Source: Deltaproteobacteria bacterium (GTDB lineage: Bacteria > Myxococcota > UBA727 > VGSZ01). Taken from it: 64,000 nucleotides of DNA. Every line of letters begins with the position of its first letter. The first letter of the stretch is position 1. Shown piece after piece: positions 3,684 through 37,715 of this stretch. Made by a program: the position numbers and the translations under genes. The notes under the pieces are model-generated. The model searched no databases, was not told the origin of the DNA, and was given only the letters and a program-made list of their open reading frames with translations. The stretch covers positions 48,057 through 112,056 of the forward strand of contig JACOUT010000009.1 of NCBI GenBank assembly GCA_016177705.1, given 5' to 3'.

Positions 3684-3991
3684 CTACTCGGCGCAGCGCC
3701 CGTCCTCGCACACGCCCGACGGGCACGGGGTGTAGGCGACCGCGCCGTCGACGCACGAGTAGTAGCCCTCGCCCGCACACTCGGCGCCAAAGCGCGCGGC
3801 GTCGCACTCGGCCTCGGGCACGCAGATACGTTGCCGATCAGCGGGCTCGGCCGCGTCGGCGCCGCAGAAGAAGCCTCGCTCACAGTCGTCGTCGTGCTCG
3901 CAGGGCGCGCCGAGCGCGGCGCGCTGTTCGACGCCGCACGCGACCGCGAGCGTGCACAGCGAGACGCACAGCGAAGCGACCACAGCAGCCC

Positions 3992-10919: not shown

Positions 10920-11106
10920 CTACAGCTCCGTCGTCAAGCTGGCGGCGTGGGCCCGCTGGCGCCACGAGCCTAGCAGCCCGATGCGGCACGGACCGCTGCC
11001 CGGGGGATCCAAGTGTGCCCGCCTCATCGCCGTGGTTGGCCAGCGTCGCTGGTGGCGGCTCACCTCGAGACACGCCCACCGGCCAGGGTGGGCTATGCGA
11101 CAGTGC

Positions 11107-11438
11107 TCAGCATGAGCCGCGGCGCAGCGACCGTCGGAAGTGCCCTCGCCGTCGCCATGATCGCAGGTGGATGCCGCCTGCTCGGCGTCGCGGCGCTCGA
11201 GTGCTCGGCGGACTGGGATTGCCCGACCGATCGGTGGTGTGTCGATGGGCGCTGCGCAGTCCCAACTGCCGAAGGCGAAGGCGAGGGCGATGGCGAGGGC
11301 GATGGTTGCCGGCCTCACTTGCGCGGCACCAGTCGATCGAACGCCGCGCGTCCGTGCTCGACCATCTGCGTGTCGCCGAACGACAGCAGCACGCGGACGC
11401 CGAGCTCGTCGAGCGGCGCCGCCAGATCGAGGCGATAG
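11107..11438 (+). pseudogene. small lipoprotein-like ORF with a cysteine-rich segment and a GE/GD repeat, probably a gene fragment
   Basis: MSRGAATVGSALAVAMIAGGC lipobox, then CSADWDCPTDRWCVDGRCAVPTAEGEGEGDGEGDG. The frame then runs antisense into the 3' end of the convergent Omp85 gene, so its end is not credible. It shares the (GE)n tether seen at 55.9 and 58.5 kb. Confidence 0.3.
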
Positions 11439-13051
11439 ACGCCGCGGTTGAACTGCGGGAACAGAAAGCGCACGCCGACGCCGATCGAGTGGTGCGGCTT
11501 CGCTTCGGCCGGCTCGAAGAAGATGGCGCCGGCGTCGTAGAAGGCAGCCAAACCGAGCTGGATGGTGGCGAGGTCGATGGGCAGGCTGCGCCACTCGAGC
11601 GTGCTCTGCGCCAGGCTGGCGCCGACGTCGTAGAAGGCGCTGCTCGGGTAGCCGCGCAGGCCGTTGTCACCGCCGAGCGTGACCAGCGTGTTGGTCTCGT
11701 CCTCGCGCCGCAGCGTGGTGTCGAGGCGCACGAGCAAGCGCCCCGCGAGCACGGGCGCGCTCGCCAGGCGCAGGCGCAGCGTGAGCGTGCGGTTCTTGAC
11801 CATGCCGTCCTCGAGCCGGGCGCCGCCCTCGGCGGCGGCCTCGACCAGGCCGCCCCAGGGGTCGTCGGCGATGGCGAAGGCGCCGGCGCCGAACACCGTG
11901 TCCGACGACGACAGCGCGGCCTTGCTGCCGGCGCCGATCAGCACCGACAGCGAGGGGCCGAGGCGCACCGGCTCCGAGATGCCGAAGGTGTCGAGGTCCT
12001 CGTAGATACGGTGCTTGGCGGCGAAGCCCTGGTAGGCGAGGAAGGGGAAGAGCGTGCGGCGCGTCGGCGGCAGCACCTCGCGCGCGAAGGCGTCGGCGAG
12101 CGCGGGCGGCAGCTTGGTCTCCTCGATCGGCTCGGCCGCGTCGTCGATGAAACCGACGCCGAGCGCGAGGCGGTGGACCAAGAGCTGGGTGAATTGGCGG
12201 CGCAACCTCGCGTCGATGGTGACGTTGCGCTCGCCCCAGATGCTCGGCACTTGTTCGACGGCCGGGGTGCCGGCGGCGTCCCACGGCAGCGGCTCGCCGT
12301 CGAGCATCTGACGCCGCGTGCGCGCCTCGACGCTGCCCTCGACGGAGAAGCCCCATTGCTGCGCCAGGTCGTAGAGCGGTGCGCCGGCGGTGATCAGGCC
12401 GGCGACGCCGTCGAAGCGGCCGTCGAGCCGCGAGAAGAACGCCTCGACGTGCTCGCCCGCCTCGAGCCCGCCGCCAAAGACGCGCGGGTCGTAGAGGATC
12501 TCGCCGACCGACCACGACGAGGGGTCCATGGTGAAGCGCAGCGTCGCCACCTTGGCGCGCCCGAGCAGGTTGCGCTCGGTCAGCTGCAACAACAGCCGAT
12601 CGATCGAGGGGCCGGTCACCTGGAAGCCCTGCTCGAGGCGCAGGCTCCAGAGATCGCGCACGAACACCAAGACGCCGACGGCGCCGTCGGCGGCGCGGCG
12701 CACCGGCGTCACGCGCACGAACGAGAAGATGAACATGGCGCGCAAGATGCGCGCGCTCTCGTCGAGACGCTCGAAGGGCCCGCCGACCGCGAACAGCAGC
12801 TCGCGCTCGACGACGTCCTTGGCGGTCTGCACGTGCGCCAGGTTGAACCAGTCGGGCCAGAAGTCGTCGGGCGTGAACACGTCGTGGCCGACCACGCGCA
12901 CGAAGGCGACGCGATCGCCGGCGGTCGGTGCGAACGGCGCGAGCCCCTCGCCCGCCAACACCTCGGCAAGGCGCTCGTCCTCGTAGGTGCGGGCGTCGGC
13001 GGCGCCGTCCACCTGGACGGTGAGCAAAAGGCACAGCGCGAGAGGTGTCAC
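11315..13051 (-). CDS. Omp85-superfamily outer-membrane beta-barrel protein (BamA/TamA/surface antigen D15-like)
   Basis: 578 aa. Signal peptide. A C-terminal Bac_surface_Ag-type region (GLRGYPSSAFYDVGAS…FYDAGAIF…IGVGVRFLFP…YRLDLAAPL). A short non-canonical tail follows the barrel. Confidence 0.7.
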   Translation of the reverse strand: MTPLALCLLLTVQVDGAADARTYEDERLAEVLAGEGLAPFAPTAGDRVAFVRVVGHDVFTPDDFWPDWFNLAHVQTAKDVVERELLFAVGGPFERLDESARILRAMFIFSFVRVTPVRRAADGAVGVLVFVRDLWSLRLEQGFQVTGPSIDRLLLQLTERNLLGRAKVATLRFTMDPSSWSVGEILYDPRVFGGGLEAGEHVEAFFSRLDGRFDGVAGLITAGAPLYDLAQQWGFSVEGSVEARTRRQMLDGEPLPWDAAGTPAVEQVPSIWGERNVTIDARLRRQFTQLLVHRLALGVGFIDDAAEPIEETKLPPALADAFAREVLPPTRRTLFPFLAYQGFAAKHRIYEDLDTFGISEPVRLGPSLSVLIGAGSKAALSSSDTVFGAGAFAIADDPWGGLVEAAAEGGARLEDGMVKNRTLTLRLRLASAPVLAGRLLVRLDTTLRREDETNTLVTLGGDNGLRGYPSSAFYDVGASLAQSTLEWRSLPIDLATIQLGLAAFYDAGAIFFEPAEAKPHHSIGVGVRFLFPQFNRGVYRLDLAAPLDELGVRVLLSFGDTQMVEHGRAAFDRLVPRK

Positions 13052-13139
13052 CGGCGCGAGAGTCTAGCGCCGTCGCGATTCCCGCTGGTCAGCGTCGCCG
13101 AAGTGGCTAGGATGCCCCGCCCACACCCCGGGGGGAACC

Positions 13140-15065
13140 ATGACGTCAACCAGCACCGACACCACGAGCAAGACCAACGCGCCGCCCGTCCTTGGCGGCA
13201 ACGGGAGCCCCATGACGAGCGGGAGCACCAGCAAGAGCGGCATCGCCAAGGCGCCGGGAGGCACCGTCAGCGTCGCGAGCCTGTTCCTCGATCGCGTCGC
13301 TGCCACCCCCGACCGCAAGGCCTTCACCGTGCCGAGCGCCGGCGGTTGGAAGACGCTCACCTGGAAGGAGACGCGCGAGCGCGTCATGGCCATCGCGTGC
13401 GGCCTGCGCGCGCTCGGCCTCGAGAGCGAGCAGCGCTGCGCCATCCTGTCGGGCACGCGGCTCGATTGGATCCTCGCCGACATCGGCATCTTGTGCGCGG
13501 GCGGCGCCACTACCACCATCTACCCCCAGAACACGCCGGATGAGTGCGCCTACATCCTGAACGACTCGAACACCGTGCTCGCCCTCGCCGAGGACGACAA
13601 CCAGGTGGCCAAGCTGGTCGCCAAGCGCGCCGAGCTGCCCAAGCTCAAGCACGTCATCACCTTCGACGGCAAGCCGAGCGCCGATGGCTTCGTGCTCACG
13701 CTCGCCTCGCTCGAGGAGAAGGGCCGCGAGGCGCATGCCAAGGCGCCCGACGATTTCGAGAAGATCGCGCGCGCGGTCAAGAACGACGCGCTCGCCACGC
13801 TCATCTACACCTCGGGCACCACCGGCAAGCCCAAGGGCGTCGAGCTGACCCACGACTGCTGGGTGTACACGGCCGAGGCGCTCGAGGCCGCCGGCATCCT
13901 CGGCCTCGATGACGTGCAGCTCTTGTGGCTGCCGATGGCGCACTCCTTCGGCAAGGTGCTCGAGGTCATCCAGATCAAGCTGGGCTTCGAGACCGCGGTC
14001 GATGGGCGGCAGGACAAGCTCGTCGACAACCTGGCGGCCATCAAGCCGACCTTCGTCGGCGCCGTGCCGCGCGTGTTCGAGAAGGTCTACAACAAGGTGA
14101 TCGCCGGAGCGAAGGAAGGCGGCGGCCTCAAGTACGCCATCTTCAAGTGGGCGGTGGAGAACGGCAAGCAGGCTTCGGCGCTGCGCCAGCAAGGCAAGCA
14201 GCCCGACGGCTTCCTCGCGTGGAAGCTCGGCATCGCCGACAAGCTGGTGTTCTCCAAGCTGCGCGACAAGTTCGGCGGCCGCCTCCGATTCTTCGTCTCG
14301 GGCAGCGCGCCGCTGTCGCGTGAGGTGCACCAGTTCTTCGACGCCGCCAACATCCTGATCCTCGAGGGCTACGGCCTGACCGAGACCAGCGCGGCGTCGT
14401 TCGTCAACCTGCCGAACAAGTTCCGCATCGGCACCGTGGGCCCGCCGCTGCCCGGCACCGAGATCAAGATCGTGCCCGAGGACGGCGAGATCCTGATCAA
14501 GGGTCGCGGCGTCATGCGCGGCTACCACGGCCTGAAAGAGCAGACCGCCGAGACGCTGCGTCCCGACGGCTGGCTCGCCACCGGCGACATCGGCGAGTTC
14601 GTCGACGGCTTCCTGCGCATCACCGATCGCAAGAAGGATCTGATCAAGACCTCGGGCGGCAAGTACGTCGCGCCGCAGGCGGGCGAGGGCAAGCTGAAGG
14701 CGATGTGTCCGCTGCTCAGCCAGGTGGTGGTGCACGGCAACAACCGCCAGTTCTGTTCCATGCTGGTCAGCCTCGAGCCCGAGGCGGCCAAGAAGTGGGC
14801 GGCCGAAAACGGCCTCGGCGCGCTCTCGTACGAGGAGCTGACCAAGAACGACGCGATGAAGGCAGCCATCCAGGGCTACATCGATCAGCTCAACGCCGGC
14901 CTGGCGCGTTACGAGTCCATCAAGAAGTTCGCCATCCTGCCGAAGGACCTCACCGTCGAGGACGGCGATCTCACGCCCACCTTGAAGCTCAAGCGCAAGG
15001 CGGTCGAGACCAAGTACAAGGAGCTGCTCGACAGCTTCTACGTCGGCGCTGTCGCCGACGTGTAG
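13140..15065 (+). CDS. long-chain fatty-acid–CoA ligase (AMP-dependent synthetase)
   Basis: 641 aa with the IYTSGTTGKPKGVELTH AMP-binding motif and LEGYGLTETS. Confidence 0.88.
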   Translation: MTSTSTDTTSKTNAPPVLGGNGSPMTSGSTSKSGIAKAPGGTVSVASLFLDRVAATPDRKAFTVPSAGGWKTLTWKETRERVMAIACGLRALGLESEQRCAILSGTRLDWILADIGILCAGGATTTIYPQNTPDECAYILNDSNTVLALAEDDNQVAKLVAKRAELPKLKHVITFDGKPSADGFVLTLASLEEKGREAHAKAPDDFEKIARAVKNDALATLIYTSGTTGKPKGVELTHDCWVYTAEALEAAGILGLDDVQLLWLPMAHSFGKVLEVIQIKLGFETAVDGRQDKLVDNLAAIKPTFVGAVPRVFEKVYNKVIAGAKEGGGLKYAIFKWAVENGKQASALRQQGKQPDGFLAWKLGIADKLVFSKLRDKFGGRLRFFVSGSAPLSREVHQFFDAANILILEGYGLTETSAASFVNLPNKFRIGTVGPPLPGTEIKIVPEDGEILIKGRGVMRGYHGLKEQTAETLRPDGWLATGDIGEFVDGFLRITDRKKDLIKTSGGKYVAPQAGEGKLKAMCPLLSQVVVHGNNRQFCSMLVSLEPEAAKKWAAENGLGALSYEELTKNDAMKAAIQGYIDQLNAGLARYESIKKFAILPKDLTVEDGDLTPTLKLKRKAVETKYKELLDSFYVGAVADV

Positions 15066-15085: not shown

Positions 15086-16444
15086 ATGTCGCGCTGCCCG
15101 TTGCCGCTGTGCCTCTGCTGCGGCGTCCTCGCCGGTTTGGGCTGCGCGCCCACGCTGGTCGAGGACGCGCAGCTTCTGGGGCCGTTCACAACGCAAGGAT
15201 CCTTCATCGTCGACGCGCACGGCGGGCGCCTCCTGTTGCGCGGCGCCAACCTGTCGCAGACCGCCAAGAGCGAGCCCTACCACCCGGCCGAGCTCGAGGG
15301 TGAAGGGCGCGCGCTCGTGGCGGCCCATGGCCCGATGGCGATCCGCTACCTGACGTCGTGGGCGGCCATCGAGCCAGATGAGGGCGCGTACGACCAAGCG
15401 TACCTCGATGGGATGGCCGAGCGCCTCGGCGCGCTCGGTGACGACGGCCACCTGGTGGTGCTCGATCTGCACCAGGATCTGTTCGGCGTCGGTTTCGCCG
15501 GCGCCAACGGCGCGCCCCGTTTCGCATGCGACGAGAGCGCGTATGCGGCCTACACGCCGGAGTCGCCGTGGTTTCGCAACTACTACGATGAGGCGGTGCA
15601 GGGCTGCTTCGACGCGCTGTTCGCCGATGAGGCACGGCTGCGCCAGATGGCGCGCGCGCTGCGCTCCGCGGTCGACGCGGTGCAGGCAGTGGCGCCGAAC
15701 GCGCTCGTCGGCGTCGACCTGCTGAACGAGCCGCACCCGGGCAGCCGCGCGCCCGCCGACTTCGACGTGCTGTTGGCGCGCTACTACCAGATCGCGGCCG
15801 AGGAGCTCGACGGCACCGGCCTGGTCTTGCTGTTCGAGCCGAACGTGCTGCACAACCTGGGCGAGGCGACCGCGCTGTCGGCCGCGCCCTCGAGCGCGTC
15901 GCTGTACGCGCCGCACCTGTACCCGGCCGACGTCGAGCTCGGTCGCTACACGGACGTTAGCGCGCTGGCCGGGCTGCTCGCTGACGACGCCGCCGAGGCC
16001 GCGGCGCTCGGCACACCGCTCGTCATCGGGGAGTACGGGCCGAAGCTGGACGACCCCGCGGCGGTGCCCTTCGTCGAGGACGCGCTCGCCATCCTCGACG
16101 AGAGCTTCGCCGGCGCCTTCTCCTGGGACTGGTCGGCGGCGAGCGACCGCGGCCTGCTGCACGAGGGCGCCGAGGAGGTGCGTCGCGCGGAGCTGCGACC
16201 GCACGCCCGCCGCGTCGCCGGTGCGTTGGTGCGCCACCGCTTCGATCCGGCGAGCGCCACGCTCGAGGTCGAGTGGGCGGACGACGGCGCCATCGGCGCC
16301 ACCGAGATCGTGGCGGCGGGGTGGGGGACGCCCACGGTCGTCGAGCTGAGCGACGGCGGGGCCGCGCTCGAAGGGGCGCTGTTGCGGGTACGCGCGAGCA
16401 CTCAGGTCGAGACCCACCGCGTGGTGGTGTCGTTCGGCGAGTAA
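15086..16444 (+). CDS. glycoside hydrolase family 5 lipoprotein
   Basis: Start at the internal ATG with lipobox MSRCPLPLCLCCGVLAGLGC. GH5 catalytic motifs LLNEPH (acid/base Glu) and VIGEYGP (nucleophile Glu). Confidence 0.7.
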   Translation: MSRCPLPLCLCCGVLAGLGCAPTLVEDAQLLGPFTTQGSFIVDAHGGRLLLRGANLSQTAKSEPYHPAELEGEGRALVAAHGPMAIRYLTSWAAIEPDEGAYDQAYLDGMAERLGALGDDGHLVVLDLHQDLFGVGFAGANGAPRFACDESAYAAYTPESPWFRNYYDEAVQGCFDALFADEARLRQMARALRSAVDAVQAVAPNALVGVDLLNEPHPGSRAPADFDVLLARYYQIAAEELDGTGLVLLFEPNVLHNLGEATALSAAPSSASLYAPHLYPADVELGRYTDVSALAGLLADDAAEAAALGTPLVIGEYGPKLDDPAAVPFVEDALAILDESFAGAFSWDWSAASDRGLLHEGAEEVRRAELRPHARRVAGALVRHRFDPASATLEVEWADDGAIGATEIVAAGWGTPTVVELSDGGAALEGALLRVRASTQVETHRVVVSFGE

Positions 16445-16533
16445 GCTTCGTCCGCGAAGTCGATTGTGGGAAAGAGCGGTTGCCAGCGCTCGCCGGCTCC
16501 TTCTAAGGTCCGCGCGCACCTTCCGGGGATACC

Positions 16534-17436
16534 ATGGCAGATCAGCCCTCTTTCATTGGCGAGCGCGCCGCACGCCAACTCTCCAACACCACCAAGACGC
16601 CGCCGCAGTGGCGCGGCGCGAGCCCCCGCTGGCTGACGCAGATGCTGCCGTGGGTGCCGGTGGAGGCGGGCGTCTACCGCGTCAACCAGGCGCTCGACGA
16701 CAAGTTCGAGCTGCGCTGTACGCCCGACCCCGCGGCGTCGTTGCCGGTCGGCCTCTCCGACTATGAGGCGCAGCCGCGCGAGTACGTGCTCTCCTCGGTG
16801 ACGACGACCATCGCCGTGCACACGCGCGTCTCCGACCTGTTCCGCAGCCCGATGGATCAGACGAAAGAGCAGCTCACCCTCGCCATCGACAAGTTGAAGG
16901 AGAAGCAAGAGGACGAGCTGATCAACAACGCGAGCTACGGCCTGATCAACAACGCCGACCCCGAGATGCGCGTCAAGACGCGCAAGGGCCCGCCCACGCC
17001 CGACGACATGGACGAGCTGATCGCGACGGTGTGGAAGGAGCCCTCCTTCTTCCTCGCGCACCCGAAGGCCATCGCTGCCTTCGGCCGCGAGTGCACCCGT
17101 CGCGGCGTGCCGCCGCCCACGGCGACCATGTTCGGCGCGCCCTTCCTCACCTGGCGCGGGCTGCCGCTCGTGCCCTGCGACAAGCTCCGCATCAAGGACA
17201 ACAAGACAAACGTGCTGTTGCTGCGCACCGGCGAGCGCAAGCGCGGCGTGGTCGGCCTGTTCCAGCCGGGCTTGCCCGGCGAAGTGAGCCCGAGCTTGAG
17301 CGTGCGCATGATGGGCATCAACGCGCAGGGCGCGACGCAGTACCTGCTGTCGCTCTACTGCTCGACGGCGGTGTTGGTGCACGACGCGCTCGGTGTGCTC
17401 GAGGGCGTGACGGTGAACCACTATTACGACTACTGA
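16534..17436 (+). CDS. Family 2A encapsulin shell protein (HK97-fold nanocompartment)
   Basis: 300 aa, the Family 2 size class, with no cNMP-binding insertion. It lies 23 nt upstream of a SufS-like cysteine desulfurase that carries a long disordered N-terminal extension and is followed by a rhodanese gene. This is the canonical Family 2A operon arrangement. Confidence 0.55.
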   Translation: MADQPSFIGERAARQLSNTTKTPPQWRGASPRWLTQMLPWVPVEAGVYRVNQALDDKFELRCTPDPAASLPVGLSDYEAQPREYVLSSVTTTIAVHTRVSDLFRSPMDQTKEQLTLAIDKLKEKQEDELINNASYGLINNADPEMRVKTRKGPPTPDDMDELIATVWKEPSFFLAHPKAIAAFGRECTRRGVPPPTATMFGAPFLTWRGLPLVPCDKLRIKDNKTNVLLLRTGERKRGVVGLFQPGLPGEVSPSLSVRMMGINAQGATQYLLSLYCSTAVLVHDALGVLEGVTVNHYYDY

Positions 17437-17459
17437 GGGGCACGAGTACGCCTGAGCCC

Positions 17460-19103
17460 ATGAACCCGACGGATCCGCTCTCACCGGGCGAGCTGGCGCT
17501 CGTCTCCCATGCGCCGACCGACGTCGAGCGCGGCGCCACGCCGCCGCTCGCGTCGCCCGGCGTGGGCATGGCGGCGACGCGCGTGCCGAGCGGGCCGAGC
17601 CTGCCCGACGCGCATCCTGCGAGCATGCACCTGGCGGCGGCCAACAGCGGGCTCGCAAACCCCTTCTTGGCGCCGCTCGACTTCTCCTCGGTGATGGCGT
17701 CGCCGAACGCGCCTGCCTCAAGCATGCCGGCGAGCTTCTCGGTGCCGCTGTTGCGCGACGACGTCCCCGCGGCGCCGGCGTCGCCGCCCGCACCTGCCGC
17801 CGCGCCGACCCCCGCTCCGCCGGTGCTCGACCTCGGGACGCTCGGGTTTGCCCCCGTGCCGGCGCTCGACGCGCCGGCATCGAGCGGATCGTTCGACGCG
17901 CACGCGCTCAAGCGCGAGTTTCCCATCCTGCAGGAGCGCGTGCACGGCAAGCCGCTCGTCTGGCTCGACAACGCGGCCACCACGCAGAAGCCGCGCATGG
18001 TCATCGAGCGGGTGAAGACCTTCTACGAGCGCGAGAACTCCAACATCCATCGCGCGGCGCACGCGCTGGCTGCTCGCGCCACCGACGCCTACGAGAGTGC
18101 GCGCGAGACGGTACGGCGCTTCCTGAACGCCTCGTCGGTGCGCGACGTGGTGTTCGTGCGCGGCGCCACCGAGGGCATCAACCTGGTGGCGCAGGCGTGG
18201 GGCAGGCGCAACGTCAAGGAGGGCGACGAGATCGTCGTCACCCACCTCGAGCACCACGCCAACATCGTGCCGTGGCAGATGCTGTGCAAAGAGACCGGCG
18301 CCATCCTGCGCGTCGCGCCCGTCGACGACACCGGGCAGGTGCTGCTCGACGACTACCAGCGGCTCTTGAGCGAGCGCACCAAGCTGGTGGCGCTGCCGCA
18401 GGTGTCGAACGCGCTCGGCACGGTGACGCCGGCCGCGCGCATGATCGAGATGGCGCATCGCCACGGTGCGCGCGTGCTGCTCGACGGCGCGCAGTCGGTG
18501 TCGCACCTGCGCGTCGACGTGCAGCAGCTCGGCTGTGACTTCTTCGTCTTCTCGGGGCACAAGGTGTTCGCGCCTACCGGCATCGGTGCGGTGGTGGCGC
18601 CGGCCGCGCTGCTCGACGAGACGCCGCCCTGGCAGGGCGGCGGCAACATGATCCAGGACGTCACCTTCGAGCGCACCGTGTACCAGCCGGCACCGGCGCG
18701 CTTCGAGGCCGGCACCGGCAACATCGCCGATGCGGTCGGGCTCGGCGCCGCGCTCGACTGGCTGTCGCGCGTGGGGCTCGAGAACGTCGAGCGGCACGAG
18801 CACGAGCTGCTGCGCTACGGCACCGAGAAGCTGCTCTCGGTGCCGGGCCTGCGCATCATCGGCACGGCGCCGGAGAAGGCGGGCGTGCTCTCCTTCGTCA
18901 TCGACGGGCACGACACGCAGACCATCGCCAAGGCGCTCGACCAGGAGGGCATCGCGGTGCGCGGCGGGCATCACTGCGCGCAGCCCATCCTGCGGCGCTT
19001 CGGACTCGAGAGCACGGTGCGTGCCTCGCTGGCGCCGTACAACACGCTCGAGGATCTCGACGCGCTGACGGCCGCTTTGTGTAGGATGGTGGGCGTCCGC
19101 TGA
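17460..19103 (+). CDS. SufS/CsdA-like cysteine desulfurase with a ~150-aa disordered N-terminal extension (putative encapsulin cargo)
   Basis: The class-V aminotransferase core starts near ALKREFPILQERVHGKPLVWLDNAATTQKP and includes HHANIVPWQ and FSGHKVFAPTGIGA. The N-terminus is Pro/Ala/Ser-rich low complexity. Confidence 0.85.
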   Translation: MNPTDPLSPGELALVSHAPTDVERGATPPLASPGVGMAATRVPSGPSLPDAHPASMHLAAANSGLANPFLAPLDFSSVMASPNAPASSMPASFSVPLLRDDVPAAPASPPAPAAAPTPAPPVLDLGTLGFAPVPALDAPASSGSFDAHALKREFPILQERVHGKPLVWLDNAATTQKPRMVIERVKTFYERENSNIHRAAHALAARATDAYESARETVRRFLNASSVRDVVFVRGATEGINLVAQAWGRRNVKEGDEIVVTHLEHHANIVPWQMLCKETGAILRVAPVDDTGQVLLDDYQRLLSERTKLVALPQVSNALGTVTPAARMIEMAHRHGARVLLDGAQSVSHLRVDVQQLGCDFFVFSGHKVFAPTGIGAVVAPAALLDETPPWQGGGNMIQDVTFERTVYQPAPARFEAGTGNIADAVGLGAALDWLSRVGLENVERHEHELLRYGTEKLLSVPGLRIIGTAPEKAGVLSFVIDGHDTQTIAKALDQEGIAVRGGHHCAQPILRRFGLESTVRASLAPYNTLEDLDALTAALCRMVGVR

Positions 19104-19114
19104 CGGCCCCACCC

Positions 19115-20038
19115 ATGAAGCTCCTCTCGCCCGTCGATCTGCAAGCGCTGCTCACCACCGACGTCGACATCGTCGACGTGCGTGAGCCCGCCGAGTGGCT
19201 GACCGGGCACGTGCCGGGCGCGCGCCTGGTGCCGCTCGCGCAGCTGCGCGCCGATCCCAGAGGTGCTTTGCCGCGCGACAACGTGGTGTTCATCTGCGCC
19301 AAGGGCAAGCGCAGCGAGACGGCCGCCGAGGTGGCGATGCAGATCGGGCGCGCGCAGGTCTACAGCTTGTCGGGCGGCACTGACGCCTGGCGCGCCGCCG
19401 GCCTGCCCATCGTCATGCCCGAGGCGCAGCGCCTCGCCCGAGGGGAGGGCGAGCCCGTGGCGCCGGTCGCCGAGCCCGAGCTGGACGCGCTGGTCGGCGC
19501 CAACCTGCACGCGGAGCGCAGCGCGCGCGGCCTGTCGCTCGACGACCTGGCGCGCGACTCGGGCGTCAGCCGCACGCTGCTCGGCCAGATCGAGCTCGGC
19601 CGCACCGTGCCGTCCATCGGCGTCATCTGGAAGATCGCGCAGGCGCTCGGCGTGCCCTTCTCGACGCTGTTGGCGAGCGCGGCGCCGCGCGTCGGCACCA
19701 CCATCACCGAGCGCGAGCAGGCAAAGAAGCTGACCTCGGCCGACGGCCGCTTCTCGTCGCGTGCGCTCTACCCGCTCGGCGACGCGCACGCCGCCGAGTT
19801 CTACGAGCTGTGGATGGCGCCGCACAGCCGCGAGGACGCCGAGCCGCACCGCCCGGGCACGCGCGAGAACCTGATCGTGGTCTCGGGCAGGCTCGAGTTG
19901 AAGGTGGGCAACGACAGCTTCCAGCTCGGCAAGGGCGCGGCGGTCAACTTCTCCGCGGATCAACCGCACAGCTACATCAACCGCTCCGGCGAGGAGTGCT
20001 GGATGTACCTGGTGATGAACTACGCCGGCCGCAAGTAG
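19115..20038 (+). CDS. rhodanese-domain, HTH_XRE and cupin fusion protein (putative sulfur-responsive regulator)
   Basis: N-terminal rhodanese (VDVREPAEWLTGHVPGARLVP…ICAKGKRS, active-site Cys). Middle XRE HTH (LSLDDLARDSGVSRTLLGQIELGRTVPSIGVIWKIAQALGV). C-terminal cupin. Confidence 0.7.
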   Translation: MKLLSPVDLQALLTTDVDIVDVREPAEWLTGHVPGARLVPLAQLRADPRGALPRDNVVFICAKGKRSETAAEVAMQIGRAQVYSLSGGTDAWRAAGLPIVMPEAQRLARGEGEPVAPVAEPELDALVGANLHAERSARGLSLDDLARDSGVSRTLLGQIELGRTVPSIGVIWKIAQALGVPFSTLLASAAPRVGTTITEREQAKKLTSADGRFSSRALYPLGDAHAAEFYELWMAPHSREDAEPHRPGTRENLIVVSGRLELKVGNDSFQLGKGAAVNFSADQPHSYINRSGEECWMYLVMNYAGRK

Positions 20039-24636: not shown

Positions 24637-27600
24637 TCAGGCCGGCTTGTCGCGCAGCTCGAGCAGCAACTGGCGGCCGCGCGCCCACAGGTCTGCCCGG
24701 GTCAGCGTGCCGGCCGCCACCTGCTGCAAGAGCGCCCGCTGCGCGCGGTAGTCGCGGTTGACCACGCCGGCGCGGCTCTGCAACTGCCGCCACGCCTTGC
24801 GACGCTCGACGCAGAACAGCACCATCTGGCGCGAGAGCGCGTAGTAGGCGAGCTCGCCCTCCTCCTCGGTGACCAGGTAGGCGCCGAAGTCGGGCACGTA
24901 GGCGCGGTGCTTTTCGTCGAGGAAGCGGCGCCACACCAGGTCGTCCATGGTGAGCGCGCACAGCAGGTCGTCGAGGTGCGTGAGCTTCTTGGCCTGCTCC
25001 TCCTTGAGCGGCTTCACGTGGCGGCGGAAGCGCGCCTCGGTGGTGGCCCAGTGCGCCACCGTGTACCAGTGCTTGCCGCCGTCCTTGGCGCGACGGATCT
25101 CGCGCCAGTCGCGGTCGACCTCGAGGTTGCCGCCGAGGTCGAGCACCTCGGCGCTGGTCTCGCCCTTCTGCGGGTCGTAGACGAACTGCGGTACCCCGCG
25201 CGAGTCGCGCGCGCGCCGCGCCTGCGTGGAGGCCATGTCGTCGCCCACGCCGTGCTCGGGCTGGCAGGTGGTGAAGGACTGGAAGAACGCAGTGCCGCGA
25301 TACTCGAGCGCGCGCAGCAGCGACTCGTAGAGCCGCTGCTCATCGGCCATCGAGAGCTGCGCGACAAAGGGCGAGCCGTGCCCAACGGTGAACGCCTCGG
25401 CCACCGATTTCTTCTCGGTCAGCTTGCCCTGGGTCGCCGCGCCCATCTGGTTCATGTCGAAGCCACCGGTCAGCACCGACGAGTCCGAGTTCTGGCCGCC
25501 GGTATTCGAATAGACCTGCGTGTCGAGCATCAGCAGCTTCACGTTGGGCCGGTTTTGCAGGACGACCTTCGAGACGTTCTGGAAGCCGATGTCGCCCATG
25601 GCGCCGTCGCCGCCGATGCACCACACGCGCGGTAGCTCGTGCACCTCGCGGTCGGTCATGCGCGTGTCGTCGAGGTGGGTCAGCTCGAAGTAGTCGTCCT
25701 TGCTGAGGGGCAGCTCGGGCTTGTCCAGCAGGGCGTCGGCCAGGCGCTCCGGGATCACCGAGCGGCGCGCGTGGTCGAGGATGAAGCTCTCGCCCAGCAA
25801 CCAGGAGATGGTTGCGCCGTCCTGGAACAGCGAGTTCATCCAAGGGTAGGGGTGCGGCGTGGCGGGTGAGGTCGAGCCGTACACCGTGTTGCAGCCGGTG
25901 TGCGCGCCCATCGCCATCACTGCCATGCCGTTGGCGAGGCGCCCGTCGACGGCCTGCAGGTAGCGATGATTGAAGGCGTCCTGGCGGAGCACGGTGACGA
26001 GCGCGTCGACCAGCTCCCGGTCGCTCTTCTTGCTCGTGGCGGCCACCCGCTTGCCGGTGTCGGCGTCGCTCTCGCCGCCGAGGCCGAGGATCAGGTGCGC
26101 GACGGCACGCGCATAGAGCGCGTACGCCTCCGGGTCCTTTGTCGCGAGCGCGCCGAGCAACTCGGCGCCGCGCTCCTTCAGCACGGCGGCGCGCTGCTCG
26201 AGGCGTGCGGCGCGCGCGTGATAGATGGGGCGCATGTAGGCCTCGGTGATCGACGCCACCGTGTGCAGCACGCTCTTTTCACCGCAGCCCGCGCAGGCGC
26301 CGTCGCCCGACACGAGCGCGCCGTAGTTCTTCTGCACCATCAGGTGGTTGCGCAGCGTGGCCGGGCGCGACTTCTCGGGCGCGTTGTCGTCGTACTTGCC
26401 CAAGAACTTCGTGGGTGTCTGCGGCAGCAGCTCGAAGAAGGCCTGCGCGGACAAGCCGCGCGCGTTCAGCTCTTCTGAGTCGCTGCTCATCTTGAGCGCC
26501 TGTTTGTCGCCGCACTCGACCACGCACTCGCCGCAGCCCTTGCACAGGTCGTTGACGACGATGGAGAAGACCCCGCCCGTTCCCGGCTTGGCCTTCTCGA
26601 GCAGGCTGAACACCGGCTTCACGGCCTGGAAGGCCACCGGCACCGCCTCGAGCGCGGCCTGCAGCTCCGTGCGCGAGGCATGCGACACCTCTGCCAGACC
26701 CTCGACGAGCGGGCGCACCAGGTCGGCGAACTTGTCCTTCTTGCCGGCGCTTGCGATCTCGCCCATGCGCGCGCGCGCCGCCTGCTCGAGGCCGGGTAGC
26801 GCGCCGACGAGCTTCTTGCGATCGCCGGCGTCCGACACGTAGTGACGCACCGCGGTGGCCAGCACCGTCGACAGCTCCTGCGAGGTGTTCAGCAGCGCCG
26901 TGTCGGGGCACGCGGCGATGCATGCCATGCACTGCGTGCAGTTCTCAGCGATGAACACCGGCGTGGCGCGGCGGGCGACGTACTTGGAGGTGGTGGCCCC
27001 GGTGGCGGACGCGATCACACCCACCGAGGCGAGCGCCGAGGCCGGCTGGTCGTAGCCGAGCCCCGCGCGGAACTCGCCGTCGAAGTAGGAGCGCGCGGTG
27101 AGGTTGGGGCGCGCGGGCTGCTCCTGCGGGGGCGGCACGCGGCCGAGCGTGGCCACGTCGTCGAGGGTCTCGACCACGGGCAGCAGCGTCTTGCCACGCA
27201 TGGCCGAGCGATCCTCGGCATGCAACTCGCCGTAGGGCACCGGGCGCACCATGGTGAAGCCGTCGTCCATCACCGCCATGTTGGACGCGACCACCGCGTC
27301 TCCTAGTCGGCCGAATTTCTTCACGTACTGCTCGCGCACCAGCTCGCGGAACTTCTCCTTGGAGATATTGTAGTCGCCGAGGAACGACGACACCGCGAAG
27401 AAGGCACCGAGGAAGGCGTTGCCCTGCATCCGCAACTGCAAGTCGGGACGGTCGGTGGCGCGGCGCGCGATCTCGAAGCCGGGCAGGATGAACAGGCGGA
27501 TGTCCTTCTCGACCACCTCGCGGCGCAGCGCGCGCGGGATGCGCATCCAGGCCTTCTCCGGCGTGTCGTCGCTCTCCCAGACGAAGGCGCCGCCATGCTG

Positions 27601-29325
27601 CACGCCCTGCAGCGGATTACTGTGCGTGAAGGCCTTCGGGTCACAGCACAACACCACGTCGACGTGCCGCAGGTCGCAGTTGACCCGGATGCGCTCGGGG
27701 GCCACCACCAGGAAGTAAGCGGTGGGCGCGCCCTTTTTCTCGGAGCCGTATTTCGGGTTGGCGCTGACGTGCAGCACCTCTGCCGGCAGTCCGTTGGCGT
27801 CGACCAGCCCTCGCTCACGGGCGACGGACTCGCCGAGGTTGCCGACGATCATGCCGAGGTTCTTGCCGGTGGTGATCATCCCCCAGCCGCCGATCGAGTG
27901 CAGACGCACCGCGATGGCCTTCTCGGGCAAGAGCGACGGCGCCGACGCCGACACCACAGCGTAGGGGTGCGGCACGCCGAGCACGAAGTAGCGCTCGCCG
28001 TCCTTGGCGCTCTTGCCGTCGGTGCGCGCGATCTTGCCGGTGGCATACTGCCAGGCGCCCAGCACGTGCTCGGGCCGGAAGTCGCGCGAGCCCAAGCCGT
28101 AGCTGCCGCGGAACAGCGTGGGCTGATCGTCGGGCGCGATGGGCGGCACGGCACCGGGCGCCGCGGCCGCGCCCTCGCGCTGTGCGCGCCACGACTCGAG
28201 CGCCTTGCCGAGCGTGGTGCGAACGTCGCGCGCGAGCGCGTTGTCGCCCGACATCGCGTCGTCGACGCGCTCGAGCACGATGACGTTCTTCTTGCCGGCG
28301 AGCGCGCGGGCCAGCGCCGCCTCGGGGAAGGGCCGCAGCACGTTCAGGTGGATGGAGCCGACGCGCTCGCCGTGGGTCTTCTCGATCCAGTCGACCGCGG
28401 CTTCGATGTTCTCGGCGGCGGAGCCGAGCGTGAGGAACACGGTGTCTGCGCCCTCGCACTTGTGCTCGGTGACGAGGCCGTACTTCCTGCCGGTCAGCTC
28501 GGCGAAGCGCTCGAAGGACTCCTCGAGAAAGCCCAGGATCGGCTCCGAGAAGTTGTTCCGGCGCGCGATGACGCCTTGCATGTAGTGCTCTTGGTTCTGC
28601 ACCGGCCCGATCACCGCAGGGTTCTTGAGGTCGATGACCTCGGGGACGCGGCGGCGCGTTGGGCCAAAGAGCTCGCGTTGCGCGGGGGTGGGGCAGGGGA
28701 TGACGTCGTCGGCTGCACCGAGGAACTCACGGATCAGCTCGGCCTCGTGCATGAAGAAGGTGCGCTCGAGGTGGCTCGTCAGGAAGCCGTCCTGCACGTT
28801 GATGCCCGGGTTGAGCGCCAGCTCGGTTACGCGGCGCAGGATGAGCGCCTGGTCGGCCGCCTGCTGCGCGTCCTTGCCGACGAGGATGATCCAGCCGGTG
28901 TCGAGCGCGGCGTAGAAGTCGTCGTGGCCGCAGTGCACGTTGAGCGCGTGCTTGGTGAGCGCGCGCGCAGCGCACTGCACCACCATGGTCGAGAGCTTGC
29001 CGGGCGCGTGGTAGTACTGCTCGAGGCCGTAGACGAGGCCTTGCCCCGAGGTGAAGTTGACGACGCGCCTGCCCGTGATCGACGCCGCGATGGCGCCGCC
29101 CTGCGCCGCGTGCTCGCCCTCGGCCTCGATGGCGAGCGTGCGGTTGCCGAAGACGTTGAGCTTGCCTTCGGCGAAGGCCTGTTGAAACAGCTCGCCCATC
29201 TCGGTGGACGGCGTGATCGGGTAGAACACGCCCGCGTCGGCCACGCGCGCTTCGGTCATGGAGGCGATCAGCTGGTTGCCGTTGGCGACGACGCGGATGC
29301 CGGGATAGCGCGGGGACGTGGACAT
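24637..29325 (-). CDS. pyruvate:ferredoxin (flavodoxin) oxidoreductase-like fused 2-oxoacid:acceptor oxidoreductase, 1562 aa
   Basis: PFOR N-terminus (GNQLIASMTEARVADAGVFYPITPSTEMGE). Two 4Fe-4S ferredoxin motifs (CTQCMACIAACP, CKGCGECVVECG). TPP-binding GGDGAMGDIGFQN. About 350 aa longer than canonical NifJ. Confidence 0.85.
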   Translation of the reverse strand: MSTSPRYPGIRVVANGNQLIASMTEARVADAGVFYPITPSTEMGELFQQAFAEGKLNVFGNRTLAIEAEGEHAAQGGAIAASITGRRVVNFTSGQGLVYGLEQYYHAPGKLSTMVVQCAARALTKHALNVHCGHDDFYAALDTGWIILVGKDAQQAADQALILRRVTELALNPGINVQDGFLTSHLERTFFMHEAELIREFLGAADDVIPCPTPAQRELFGPTRRRVPEVIDLKNPAVIGPVQNQEHYMQGVIARRNNFSEPILGFLEESFERFAELTGRKYGLVTEHKCEGADTVFLTLGSAAENIEAAVDWIEKTHGERVGSIHLNVLRPFPEAALARALAGKKNVIVLERVDDAMSGDNALARDVRTTLGKALESWRAQREGAAAAPGAVPPIAPDDQPTLFRGSYGLGSRDFRPEHVLGAWQYATGKIARTDGKSAKDGERYFVLGVPHPYAVVSASAPSLLPEKAIAVRLHSIGGWGMITTGKNLGMIVGNLGESVARERGLVDANGLPAEVLHVSANPKYGSEKKGAPTAYFLVVAPERIRVNCDLRHVDVVLCCDPKAFTHSNPLQGVQHGGAFVWESDDTPEKAWMRIPRALRREVVEKDIRLFILPGFEIARRATDRPDLQLRMQGNAFLGAFFAVSSFLGDYNISKEKFRELVREQYVKKFGRLGDAVVASNMAVMDDGFTMVRPVPYGELHAEDRSAMRGKTLLPVVETLDDVATLGRVPPPQEQPARPNLTARSYFDGEFRAGLGYDQPASALASVGVIASATGATTSKYVARRATPVFIAENCTQCMACIAACPDTALLNTSQELSTVLATAVRHYVSDAGDRKKLVGALPGLEQAARARMGEIASAGKKDKFADLVRPLVEGLAEVSHASRTELQAALEAVPVAFQAVKPVFSLLEKAKPGTGGVFSIVVNDLCKGCGECVVECGDKQALKMSSDSEELNARGLSAQAFFELLPQTPTKFLGKYDDNAPEKSRPATLRNHLMVQKNYGALVSGDGACAGCGEKSVLHTVASITEAYMRPIYHARAARLEQRAAVLKERGAELLGALATKDPEAYALYARAVAHLILGLGGESDADTGKRVAATSKKSDRELVDALVTVLRQDAFNHRYLQAVDGRLANGMAVMAMGAHTGCNTVYGSTSPATPHPYPWMNSLFQDGATISWLLGESFILDHARRSVIPERLADALLDKPELPLSKDDYFELTHLDDTRMTDREVHELPRVWCIGGDGAMGDIGFQNVSKVVLQNRPNVKLLMLDTQVYSNTGGQNSDSSVLTGGFDMNQMGAATQGKLTEKKSVAEAFTVGHGSPFVAQLSMADEQRLYESLLRALEYRGTAFFQSFTTCQPEHGVGDDMASTQARRARDSRGVPQFVYDPQKGETSAEVLDLGGNLEVDRDWREIRRAKDGGKHWYTVAHWATTEARFRRHVKPLKEEQAKKLTHLDDLLCALTMDDLVWRRFLDEKHRAYVPDFGAYLVTEEEGELAYYALSRQMVLFCVERRKAWRQLQSRAGVVNRDYRAQRALLQQVAAGTLTRADLWARGRQLLLELRDKPA

Positions 29326-29386: not shown

Positions 29387-31768
29387 CTATTCCACGTGGA
29401 TGTCGACGGGCGCGCTGCGCTTGCCGCCGGCGCGCGCCTCGATACGGTGCGCGCCGCGCTCGAGCGGCCAATGCGCTTCATAGGGGAACGCGACCGCGGC
29501 GAGCGCCACTCCGTCGACGTACCAAGTGAGCAACTCGCTCGGCGGATCCACCGCCGCGCTCAGTCTTAACGACTGGGTGGCGCGCTGGTAGCCCGGCTCG
29601 ACCAGGAAGCCCTCGCCGGTGCGCGGGTAGGTCACCGTCACCTGGTCGGCCACCGCGCCGTCGGCCGGGCACAAGGGCGAGTAACCCGAGGGCGGCGCCG
29701 CGCCGGCCTCGGCCTGCCACTTGGCATAGGTCGGCGGCAGCACCGCGAAGGTGCGCTCCACCACGTGGCGCGGCGGGCAGCCCGGGCCGGCGCGCAGCCC
29801 GTTGCGCGCGTCGACGGCGATGCGGCGATGCCAGGGGCACGCCTCGGTGGGCACGTCGCCGCTGCGCACGCGCACCGTGCGCCGGTGGGGGCAGTGCGGC
29901 TCGGGCAGGCGGCCGCTGACGGCGCACACCTCGACGTCGACCACACCGGCAGGTGGCTCGCGCCAGCGCGGTGGCCGCGAGGGGGGATGCAGCACGCGCA
30001 GCACCGAGGCGAGCAGCGGGCCGGCGCCGGCGGCGCCCGCGAGCCGATCCATGGGCCGGCCAGCCACGTCGCCGAACCACACCACCACGGTATGTTCGGG
30101 CGTGTAGCCGACCGCCCAACTGTCGCGGAAGCTCGTCGAGGTGCCGGTCTTGATGGCCACGGGGAAGCCGACCAACAACGCCGTGCGCTGCCCGAACGCC
30201 CGCATGCGCAGGTGCTCGTCCTTGAGCACGTGGGTCACCAGGTGCGCCACGTCCTCGTCGATGACGCGCGGGCCGTCGTCGCCGTGGTCGTCGGCGAGCG
30301 CCTGGGGACGACAAGCGCGGCCGCCGCGCGCCAACGCGGCGTAGGCGCCGGCCAGCTCGAGCGGCGTCACCTCGCCGTTGCCGAGCGTGAGGCCGAGGCC
30401 GTAGTGCCCCGCGTCCTTGTCGAGCGAGTCGATGCCGAGCGTGCGCAGCAGGGCCAGCAGGTCGTCGACGCCCACCTGCTGCGCCGCACGGATGGCCGGC
30501 ACGTTGAGCGAGCGGCCGAGCGCCTCGCCCATCAGCACCGGCCCGTCGAAGCGCTTGTCGTAGTTCTTGGGGGAAAACAGCGTGCCGTCTGCCTCTCCGT
30601 ACCGGGTCTCGACGTCGGCGACCACCGACGCGGGCGACAAGCCCTTTGCGAAGGCGAGCGCGTAGGTGAAGGGCTTGAGCGTGCTGCCCGGCTGCCGCCG
30701 CGCCAGCGCGCCATTGACCGAGCCGCCGTCGTCGTCCCAGTAGTCGAGCGAGCCGAGCAGCGCGCGCACCGTGCAGCGCTCGTTGTCGAGCACCACCACG
30801 GCCGCGTTCCTGGCACCTTGCGCGGCGATGCGCCGCGCGTGCTCGCGCGCCAGCGCCTCGACCTTGTCTTGCAGCACCGGATCGAGCGTCGTCGTCACCT
30901 CGGCCGGTGCGCTGCCGTCCTTCGCCACCTGCGCCAGCACCAGGTCGGTGAAGTGCAGCGCGCGCGGCGCCTCGCGGTCGGCGTCGAAGCGCAGCGGCTC
31001 GGCGAGCGCCGCCTCGCGCGTCGCGGCGTCGATGGCGCCGGTCTCGACCATGCGATCGAGCACCCGTCGCTGCCGGGCGCGCGCGGCGTCGGGCGCCTTG
31101 AGCGGGTTCTTCTGGGACGGCGCCTGAGGCAGCGCGGCCAAGAGCGCCGCCTGCGCCAGGCTCAGATTGACTGCAGGAGTGCCGAAGTATCGAAGCGACG
31201 CAGCCTCGACGCCGAGCGCGCCCGCGCCGTACGGGGCGCGGTTGAGGTAGTGCGTGAGAATGGCGTGCTTGTCGTGCGCGCGCTCGATGCGTCGCGCCGT
31301 CACCATCTCGGCGAGCTTGCCGGCGAGGGAGCGCGGCCGTGGCTCCACCAGCCCGGCGAGCTGCATGGTCAGGGTCGAGGCGCCCGACACCACGCGCCCC
31401 GCGCGCAGGTTCGACAGCGCCGCGCGCACCATCGCGATCCAGTCGACGCCGCCGTGCGAGAAGAAGCGCTCGTCCTCGATGGCGACGGTCGCGTCCACGA
31501 CGGCGGGCGCCACCTGGTCGAGCGACACGGCGCGCGCGCGCGCGCCGTCGGCGCCCACGGCCTCGCGCAGCAGCGAGCCGTCGGCGGCGAGCACCCGCGT
31601 CGACGAGGGCGGCCGCGACAGGTCGGGCGCGTCGCCCAGGCGCGCCGCCAGCTCCACGCCGCCCACCAGCACCAGCGCGGCGAGCGGCGGCGCGACGGCG
31701 CACAGCAGGGCCGCGACGCCCAGCCGACGTCGCCACGCGGCCCGGCGGGTGGGCGGCGAGCGCCTCAC
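29387..31768 (-). CDS. pbpC: penicillin-binding protein 1C (glycosyltransferase plus transpeptidase), PbpC-like
   Basis: GTG start overlapping the upstream stop (GTGA). TM helix. GT51 motif IEDERFFSHGGVD. Transpeptidase STLKPF and KTGTS. The Arg-rich 5' extension of the 1226-aa track ORF is not coding. Confidence 0.85.
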   Translation of the reverse strand: MRRSPPTRRAAWRRRLGVAALLCAVAPPLAALVLVGGVELAARLGDAPDLSRPPSSTRVLAADGSLLREAVGADGARARAVSLDQVAPAVVDATVAIEDERFFSHGGVDWIAMVRAALSNLRAGRVVSGASTLTMQLAGLVEPRPRSLAGKLAEMVTARRIERAHDKHAILTHYLNRAPYGAGALGVEAASLRYFGTPAVNLSLAQAALLAALPQAPSQKNPLKAPDAARARQRRVLDRMVETGAIDAATREAALAEPLRFDADREAPRALHFTDLVLAQVAKDGSAPAEVTTTLDPVLQDKVEALAREHARRIAAQGARNAAVVVLDNERCTVRALLGSLDYWDDDGGSVNGALARRQPGSTLKPFTYALAFAKGLSPASVVADVETRYGEADGTLFSPKNYDKRFDGPVLMGEALGRSLNVPAIRAAQQVGVDDLLALLRTLGIDSLDKDAGHYGLGLTLGNGEVTPLELAGAYAALARGGRACRPQALADDHGDDGPRVIDEDVAHLVTHVLKDEHLRMRAFGQRTALLVGFPVAIKTGTSTSFRDSWAVGYTPEHTVVVWFGDVAGRPMDRLAGAAGAGPLLASVLRVLHPPSRPPRWREPPAGVVDVEVCAVSGRLPEPHCPHRRTVRVRSGDVPTEACPWHRRIAVDARNGLRAGPGCPPRHVVERTFAVLPPTYAKWQAEAGAAPPSGYSPLCPADGAVADQVTVTYPRTGEGFLVEPGYQRATQSLRLSAAVDPPSELLTWYVDGVALAAVAFPYEAHWPLERGAHRIEARAGGKRSAPVDIHVE

Positions 31769-37467: not shown

Positions 37468-37715
37468 GAAGACCTCCGACGCGGCACAGCGTCGACGAGA
37501 CCGGTGGGCGCGCGCAAGGCGCATATGCACGGCCGTTGCACGGCCCGTGCACAGCCCGAGCGCAGCCATTGCGCAGCGGGAAGCGCCTCGCGCCGGTGGC
37601 GCACGTCGTCGCTGTGGCCGCCGGGACACGACCGCTGATGCCGCACGGACACCTCGGGCGTTGATGGCACCGACGGTTGCCGCGCCGCGCCAGCGGTGCC
37701 AGCGTCAGCGCCCGC

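Follow-up and report, generated by a model that had tools for sequence, protein, structure and literature searches.

The window described here is a stretch of 64,000 nucleotides (nt) from a Deltaproteobacteria bacterium (Myxococcota; contig JACOUT010000009.1 of assembly GCA_016177705.1), numbered from its first letter. A 547-codon open reading frame (ORF) on its forward strand, running from the ATG at 17460 to its end at 19103, encodes a cysteine desulfurase, and the subject of this analysis is the segment of 144 residues that precedes the catalytic core of the enzyme. This tail very probably constitutes an intrinsically disordered N-terminal cargo-loading domain for the family 2A encapsulin shell encoded upstream, to which we infer that it binds. 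The gene is part of a complete family 2A desulfurase encapsulin operon (16534–20038) for a sulfur-storage compartment, which is composed of the following features.

16534–17436, forward strand: family 2A encapsulin shell gene, 300 amino acids (aa), the presumed tail-binding partner (NF041162, PF19307, PDB)
17437–17459, forward strand: spacer from shell stop to cargo start, 23 nt, containing CACGAGTACGCCTGA
17460–17891, forward strand: disordered N-terminal domain of the desulfurase, residues 1–144, very probably for cargo loading (G+C content at third codon positions, GC3; homologous start; indels; predicted local distance difference test, pLDDT; Pro/Ala/Ser/Gly content)
17892–19103, forward strand: SufS-type (class II) cysteine desulfurase catalytic domain, residues 145–547 plus stop (TIGR01979, NF041166, PDB, pLDDT)
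19115–20038, forward strand: third operon gene, a fusion of rhodanese, XRE-type helix-turn-helix (HTH) and cupin domains, 307 aa (Pfam)

The shell protein scores 466 bits against NF041162 (cut-off 380) and matches the SrpI-like family PF19307 at 5e-98. The best match among PDB structures is the shell of Acinetobacter baumannii (8t6r, 1e-119), followed by SrpI (6x8m, 8e-114) and mycobacterial MMP-I 9ksl and 8wol (1e-106). With 58% identity to both SrpI and the A. baumannii shell, the protein is SrpI-like and is without the cyclic nucleotide monophosphate (cNMP)-binding insertion. The third gene begins 11 nt downstream of the cargo gene, and its product matches the Pfam families Rhodanese (4e-16), HTH_3 (8e-13) and Cupin_2 (2e-10). 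The order of shell, cargo and rhodanese-HTH-cupin gene recurs on seven related contigs (L001, L002, L003, L087, L088 and two more), on all of which the fusion that follows the cargo gene measures 306–321 aa. Rhodaneses are among the most enriched accessory genes of such operons (PMC8346489), and the fusion could be a sulfur-sensing regulator joined to a sulfur acceptor. Elsewhere the parts are found as separate genes, namely a small rhodanese in Synechococcus elongatus and an XRE regulator in Azospirillum. The GenBank labels of the three products are 'hypothetical protein' for the shell, 'cysteine desulfurase' for the cargo and 'helix-turn-helix domain-containing protein' for the fusion.

The catalytic core of the desulfurase is well delimited. 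TIGR01979 (sufS) spans residues 149–542 with 543 bits and the Pfam family Aminotran_5 spans residues 167–536 at 1e-142, while the alignment of solved SufS structures to the protein starts at residue 132–150. The best structural match for the core is PDB entry 8kg1, the Mycobacterium smegmatis desulfurase Enc-CD without its tail (3.5e-175). Over residues 1–139 no enzymatic domain was matched by Pfam, by TIGR01979 and the other NCBIfam models or by the SufS structures, and the boundary between tail and core has been set at F145 (nt 17892). Against the curated model for family 2A cargo, NF041166, the protein reaches 816.2 bits and so exceeds the cut-off, which is 800; the members of its clade P0005 and P0009 score 804 and 816 bits. 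The profile fits most tails poorly, and aligns from end to end only with the A. baumannii type.

The composition of the tail sets it apart from the core. Pro and Ala each make up 20.1% of residues 1–144 and Ser another 12.5%, and Lys, Cys, Trp, Tyr, Ile and Gln are absent; Pro, Ala, Ser and Gly together account for 59% of the tail, compared with 28% of the core. Arg amounts to 2.1%, far below the approximately 16% predicted from the local base composition, so that the bias is not merely that of GC-rich DNA read through. Sequence entropy in 30-residue windows falls to minima of 2.6–3.0 bits in the tail, versus 3.3–3.9 bits in the core. AlphaFold2, run with an alignment of 91 sequences, returned block-mean pLDDT values of 34–63 for residues 1–140 and values mostly above 90 for the core; the sole helix in the tail is a weak one at residues 53–62 (pLDDT about 54). 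In composition the tail lies near those of the S. elongatus, A. baumannii, Azospirillum and M. smegmatis desulfurases. The original prediction, made from the sequence alone, had given the coordinates and sequence of this region correctly (the peptide it quoted, PAAPASPPAPAAAPTPAPPVLDLGTLGFAPVPALDAPASS, corresponds to residues 103–142), and its description of a compositionally biased N-terminal part with no enzymatic motif, followed by a SufS core from about residue 150, agrees with these results.

Short blocks of conserved sequence are set into this biased background. They are listed here together with the intervening segments of interest.

17484–17504, forward strand: block 1, residues 9–15, PGELALV (P-x-EL-x-LV), kept in the close clade and in wider Polyangia-type relatives
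17532–17621, forward strand: block 2, residues 25–54, GATPPLASPGVGMAATRVPSGPSLPDAHPA, the best-conserved part of the tail in the 91-sequence alignment
17616–17645, forward strand: residues 53–62, PASMHLAAAN, a weak predicted helix and apparently the remaining N-terminal half of a LARLANEFF-type motif
17658–17684, forward strand: block 3, residues 67–75, NPFLAPLDF, which aligns with GxNPFFAxPxFD of relatives
17733–17762, forward strand: block 4, residues 92–101, SFSVPLLRDD, with VPLL invariant in 9 clade members
17763–17852, forward strand: variable Pro/Ala linker, residues 102–131, the most divergent part, with pLDDT below 50 and a clustering of indels
17853–17870, forward strand: block 5, residues 132–137, PVPALD, whose P.L column is kept in the clade alignment

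Positions conserved in at least 90% of the 91 sequences are P33, G34, R41, P43, P46, P49, P53, P68, F69 and L97. The window protein and its close short-tailed relatives (hereafter, the window clade) retain the blocks SPGVGMAATRVPSGPxLPD, NPFxAPLDF and SFSVPLLRDD of the Myxococcota lineage. A repeated pattern of P-x-hydrophobic-D (PLLRD, PVLDL, PALDA) was also considered, but its enrichment is weak (p 0.01–0.2) and it was picked post hoc, and no claim is made for it.

The function of homologous tails has been established in other organisms. Loading requires the disordered N-terminal domain of the desulfurase in S. elongatus (PMC8049743), A. baumannii (PMC10836720) and M. smegmatis (PMC11659603), and wherever sufficiency was tested the domain alone was enough; in S. 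elongatus and M. smegmatis catalysis is unaffected by it. Residues 1–100 of the S. elongatus protein load partially and its AASPYYFLDG segment alone fails (PMC8049743). The M. smegmatis tail extends from M1 to I155; its deletion abolishes loading, either residues 1–50 or residues 51–155 suffice, and single motifs do not (PMC11659603). In cryo-electron microscopy (cryo-EM) of the A. baumannii system, the Pro/Gly/Ser-rich tail appears as separate pieces of density over non-polar areas of the lumen, at the three-fold pores and the A-domains, which suggests that several short motifs joined by flexible linkers bind discontiguously (PMC10836720). Tail residues could not be assigned to density in the cryo-EM papers, which therefore give no residue-level binding site.

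Taken together, homology and operon context make a cargo-loading domain the best explanation of the window tail. The earlier proposal that the N-terminal domain mediates cargo encapsulation gains support from the family 2A shell gene 23 nt upstream, from the NF041166 score and from the homologous tails, and loading by the window tail would follow by analogy with these; that the tail binds its own shell, and which of the blocks do so, we likewise infer. In such a scheme the shell and the desulfurase would be translated from one transcript. The conserved linear motifs of the tail, which are short and for the most part non-polar and have flexible Pro/Ala/Ser linkers between them, would dock at separate points on the luminal face of the T=1 shell as it assembles. 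Docking would trap the SufS dimer inside, where the enzyme could desulfurise cysteine arriving via the pores.

Several observations weigh against this assignment. The first concern the two published motifs, for which position weight matrices (PWMs) were built from tails outside the window clade; the LARLANEFF-type motif is represented there by 181 distinct instances in 255 of 298 tails. The best score of the window tail for this motif is −2.6 bits (shuffle p approximately 0.04–0.06), versus a family median of 30.5, and members of the window clade range from −2.6 to −17 bits (shuffle p 0.04–0.9). For the SPYYFLD-type (AASPYYFLDG) matrix the best score of the window tail is −1.3 bits (p 0.23), with nothing significant in the clade. 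At least one of the two motifs is strong in all three characterised tails: the LARLANEFF-type and SPYYFLD-type scores are 34.8 and 26.6 bits for A. baumannii, 28.0 and 16.5 bits for M. smegmatis, and −1.3 and 19.4 bits for S. elongatus. Furthermore, the NF041166 alignment is limited to residues 140–542 of the desulfurase (profile positions 220–622) and leaves the tail outside. A charge-hydropathy plot neither calls the tail disordered nor separates it from the core, although this measure is regarded as uninformative for Pro/Ala-rich sequence of low charge. On the side of the shell, a Met takes the place of a near-invariant Phe beside the cargo density: the SrpI residues F262 and Y273 are reported to lie beside the density of the cargo at the three-fold axis, and the window shell retains the second as Y270 and has M259 (17308–17310), still a non-polar residue, for the first. 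Phe occupies this position in 73 of 79 shells sampled; Met is found in the window, L002, L003 and L007, and Leu in L087, L088, L061 and L066. Apart from a few other loci, the Met and Leu forms belong to the Myxococcota-type lineage of the window.

The loss of the LARLANEFF-type motif can be followed in the alignment. The nearest long-tailed relatives carry PASLLLAVSRLANELFxAP and then a Pro/Ala/Thr linker of 60–70 residues, with PASLLLAVSRLANELF opposite residues 53–62 of the window protein, and at the same place the window clade reads PASxHLAA(A/S)(N/R)xG and passes directly into NPF. Apparently an in-frame deletion removed the ANELF half of the motif together with the first linker, about 60 residues, a reading that depends on the alignment of low-complexity sequence. 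Since the LARLANEFF-type motif is ancestral across phyla, in-frame deletion is the simplest reading. The segment GLANPFLAP of the window protein was examined as a true LARLANEFF motif and discarded, as it is this segment that scores −2.6 bits and other clade members have SRMGMGSPF or SGVGNPF instead. To judge from their sequences, NPFxAPLDF and SFSVPLLRDD may be counterparts of the SPYYFLD-type motif. Both published motifs are likewise missing from the 138-aa tail of another member of the Myxococcota, a Kofleriaceae metagenome-assembled genome (MAG; L062).

Tail length was also compared. The window tail measures approximately 144–150 aa and those of its clade 141–157, most close relatives having 190–250; tails from 80 sampled GTDB loci vary between 86 aa, in L058 from a Verrucomicrobia MAG, and upwards of 400 aa. 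The characterised tails comprise approximately 226 aa in S. elongatus (L004), approximately 225–250 aa in A. baumannii (L005) and 155 aa in M. smegmatis (P0123). Because the last of these is so short, the window tail lies within the characterised range, though at its short end. The original prediction that the domain differs from characterised examples in both length and sequence is accordingly right for sequence, in that neither published motif is present, and wrong for length. A query of a 5.8-billion-protein database with the tail alone returned one fragment (P0001), whereas the full-length query recovered the close relatives, which the tail-alone query had missed because of the word-based prefilter. 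The short-tail clade was not represented among the results of a scan of GTDB genomes, in which other Myxococcota and Acidobacteriota loci matched best. Among the family 2A desulfurase tails seen that look complete, none is shorter than the 86 aa of L058 (MAG UBA1319), whose cargo gene starts at locus position 3803. This tail carries both LTQLANDWF and PGYYFLTP; with both motifs in so short a tail, it is a candidate for a natural minimal loading tag.

Three other explanations of residues 1–144 were weighed against a cargo-loading domain. If the true start codon lay near 17900, the stretch 17460–17890 would be an untranslated leader that is open only through its high GC content. The window is indeed about 71% GC, long spurious ORFs abound in both directions (16402–17880 and 17318–18004, each on the reverse strand, are examples), and the Shine-Dalgarno-like sequence before 17460 is weak. 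The in-frame GC3 of 17460–17891, however, is 0.90, close to the values of the shell gene (0.94) and the core (0.95), compared with 0.49 in that frame upstream of 17460. The GenBank entry for the identical 547-aa protein (MBI1946848.1) uses the same start, and a homologous Met start is found in seven metagenomic relatives (80–88% identical, 538–554 aa) and in one fragment whose tail is 47% identical. Blocks of amino acids common to the clade, and kept even in this fragment, begin at residue 9, ahead of the internal M37, M56, M79 and M89, and there are no Met codons between residues 89 and 179. In the orthologous loci L001–L003, with 68–82% nucleotide identity in the tail region, substitutions are most frequent at codon position 3 and least frequent at position 2, and internal gaps among the orthologous loci are all multiples of three (12+3; 6+3; 9+9+12; 12+6). 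The depletion of Arg and the presence of such a tail in every family member also speak against a leader. The extension is thus coding from 17460, contrary to the possibility of a later start that the original prediction had allowed for, and an untranslated leader is hardly conceivable. The tail is translated and disordered, and is under purifying selection in blocks.

A second possibility is a tail that is still translated but in decay and no longer able to load the enzyme, which would then act in the cytosol as a free desulfurase. The failure to detect either published motif and the deletion of about 60 residues relative to the nearest relatives would fit such decay, as would the share of non-synonymous changes: in the tail they make up 283 of the 454 changed codons, in the core 167 of 614. 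The tail is under weaker selection than the core, and residues 105–144 are close to free-running, with per-site differences of 0.40, 0.37 and 0.55 at codon positions 1, 2 and 3. Over residues 1–104, however, the order of position 3 over 1 over 2 is clear; blocks 1–5 are kept across the clade at the nucleotide identity given above and in relatives at 47–68% protein identity; and shell and cargo are tightly linked in all relatives. The sufficiency of either half of the M. smegmatis tail and the partial loading by residues 1–100 in S. elongatus imply redundant binding determinants. We regard decay as improbable. It is very improbable, too, that the primary role of the tail is a different one, such as secretion or membrane targeting, regulation through a linker sensitive to proteases, or the nucleation of polysulfide or sulfur on a scaffold within the shell, with docking absent or secondary. 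Wild-type CyD of S. elongatus reportedly undergoes proteolysis to a form lacking the N-terminal domain (PMC8049743), and sulfur deposits are seen within loaded shells of A. baumannii (PMC10836720), both of which such a role could accommodate. Against it, the first 40 residues lack both a long hydrophobic stretch and a twin-arginine motif and thus bear no resemblance to a Sec or Tat signal, the tail has no Cys to carry a persulfide, and the homologous tails have been shown to load with no effect on catalysis. The cargo-loading domain remains the favoured explanation.

How a clade without both hallmark motifs would load can be considered from the likeness of block 2 to a motif of family 2B cargo. 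Block 2 includes, at 17553–17588 (residues 32–43, SPGVGMAATRVP), the lineage-specific pattern PG[VLI][GS]xAxxR. Among the relatives of the window protein 71 of 109 have it, compared with 6 of 117 mycobacterial tails and 2 of 81 diverse loci, these two both belonging to Myxococcota. The motif GPxGLGT or GPTGLGTSAAR of the family 2B terpene-cyclase cargo binds a three-fold pocket (PMC8346489; 10.1101/2024.04.23.590730). Both are short, Gly/Pro/Ala-rich and located in a disordered region of the cargo, and by eye SPGVGMAATR resembles GLGTSAAR; they differ in cargo enzyme, in shell subfamily and in the spacing around Pro. It is conceivable, though unlikely, that the clade loads via the 2B-like SPGVGMAATRVPSGPxLPD together with NPFxAPLDF and SFSVPLLRDD. 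Were this so, family 2A and 2B shells would share one three-fold docking pocket for interchangeable short motifs, and a loading tail could be trimmed to a minimal set of motifs. A family 2B-associated SufS of Kitasatospora (L089, 5349–5750) has GTGLAGVSRPP near its N-terminus.

The junction of shell and cargo genes was compared between the window (17420–17475) and the related loci L001 (30–100), L002 (3950–4015), L003 (900–965), and L087 and L088 (2470–2520). The gap is 4 nt in L001–L003, and the genes overlap by 14 nt in L087 and by 4 nt in L088, where the end of the shell protein and the start of the cargo protein, MTT(P/R)D, are encoded by the same bases in two frames. The sequence CACGAGTACGCCTGA in the 23-nt spacer of the window corresponds to the 3′ end of the shell gene (HEYA-stop) in close relatives, and the window shell ends earlier, with NHYYDY-stop, after approximately 16 extra bases. 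By sequence comparison, CACGAGTACGCCTGA is best read as a relic of the shell 3′ end. Co-variation of the change from F262 to Met with the loss of LARLANEFF was considered and rejected, as L007, with Met, has LANEQY, and L087 and L088, with Leu, have LANELF or VNDLY, which are intact motifs of the LARLANEFF type.

A few other genes of the window may be mentioned. Between an acyl-CoA-ligase-like gene (13140–15065) and the shell lies a glycoside hydrolase family 5 (GH5)-like gene at approximately 15100–16444 on the forward strand (Cellulase 1.6e-10, GH5 C-terminal domain; GC3 0.92); in L002 the shell directly follows the ligase. An 842-aa ORF at 11015–13543 (forward strand) is matched by no Pfam family and is probably an artefact of the high GC content, and the reverse-strand ORF that overlaps it at 11315–13051 has a GC3 of 0.95 and a weak Omp85 match. 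Two very large but ordinary-looking genes lie on the reverse strand. The one at 24637–29325, which in L001 likewise occurs near the operon, encodes a 1562-aa pyruvate:ferredoxin-oxidoreductase-like protein; the other, at 31765–37629, encodes a bacterial alpha-2-macroglobulin of 1954 aa.

The window tail belongs to a known class, the fast-evolving disordered loading domains, within which it is short and divergent in sequence; its lack of both published motifs makes it a modest variant. Nothing about it falls outside the known behaviour of such domains, and knowledge of these systems is otherwise unchanged. Its value lies in having been shortened naturally, so that a tail without both published motifs, yet under selection, provides a natural experiment for mapping docking motifs; the deletion of about 60 residues and the short tail that results may also be of use in the design of compact loading tags.

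Of the characterised systems, M. smegmatis Enc-CD (PMC11659603; 8kg1, 8wol) is similar in its nearly equal tail length, its Pro/Ala-rich, disordered character, its class II SufS core and the adjoining family 2A shell. The two tails can be aligned only in the last few residues before the core, and that of M. smegmatis has LSALATQLF (28 bits) and SPDYYFLRD (16.5 bits), whereas the window tail has neither. The S. elongatus PCC 7942 desulfurase CyD (Synpcc7942_B2661; PMC8049743; 6x8m/6x8t) shares the disordered N-terminal domain, the position of its gene directly after the shell gene and the downstream rhodanese. It differs in a tail of approximately 225 aa with two ERSL(E/A)QL..VLQD repeats and GFYFIDE, and its locus differs in having cysK and a serine acetyltransferase gene as neighbours and in a rhodanese that is a separate small protein. 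The A. baumannii desulfurase encapsulin (PMC10836720; 8t6r) has the same architecture and a Pro/Gly/Ser-rich tail, for which multi-motif binding has been proposed, but this tail comprises approximately 225–250 aa and includes a canonical IARLANEFFSAVP and two (Y/F)YFL(N/D) motifs. A last comparison is with the longer tails of the nearest relatives, from Polyangia/Myxococcota MAGs (P0010, P0011, P0013 and others), which share blocks 1–5 and the same three-gene operon with the fusion; unlike the window tail, they extend over 190–250 aa and have an intact LAVSRLANELFxAP and a Pro/Ala/Thr linker of approximately 60–70 aa.

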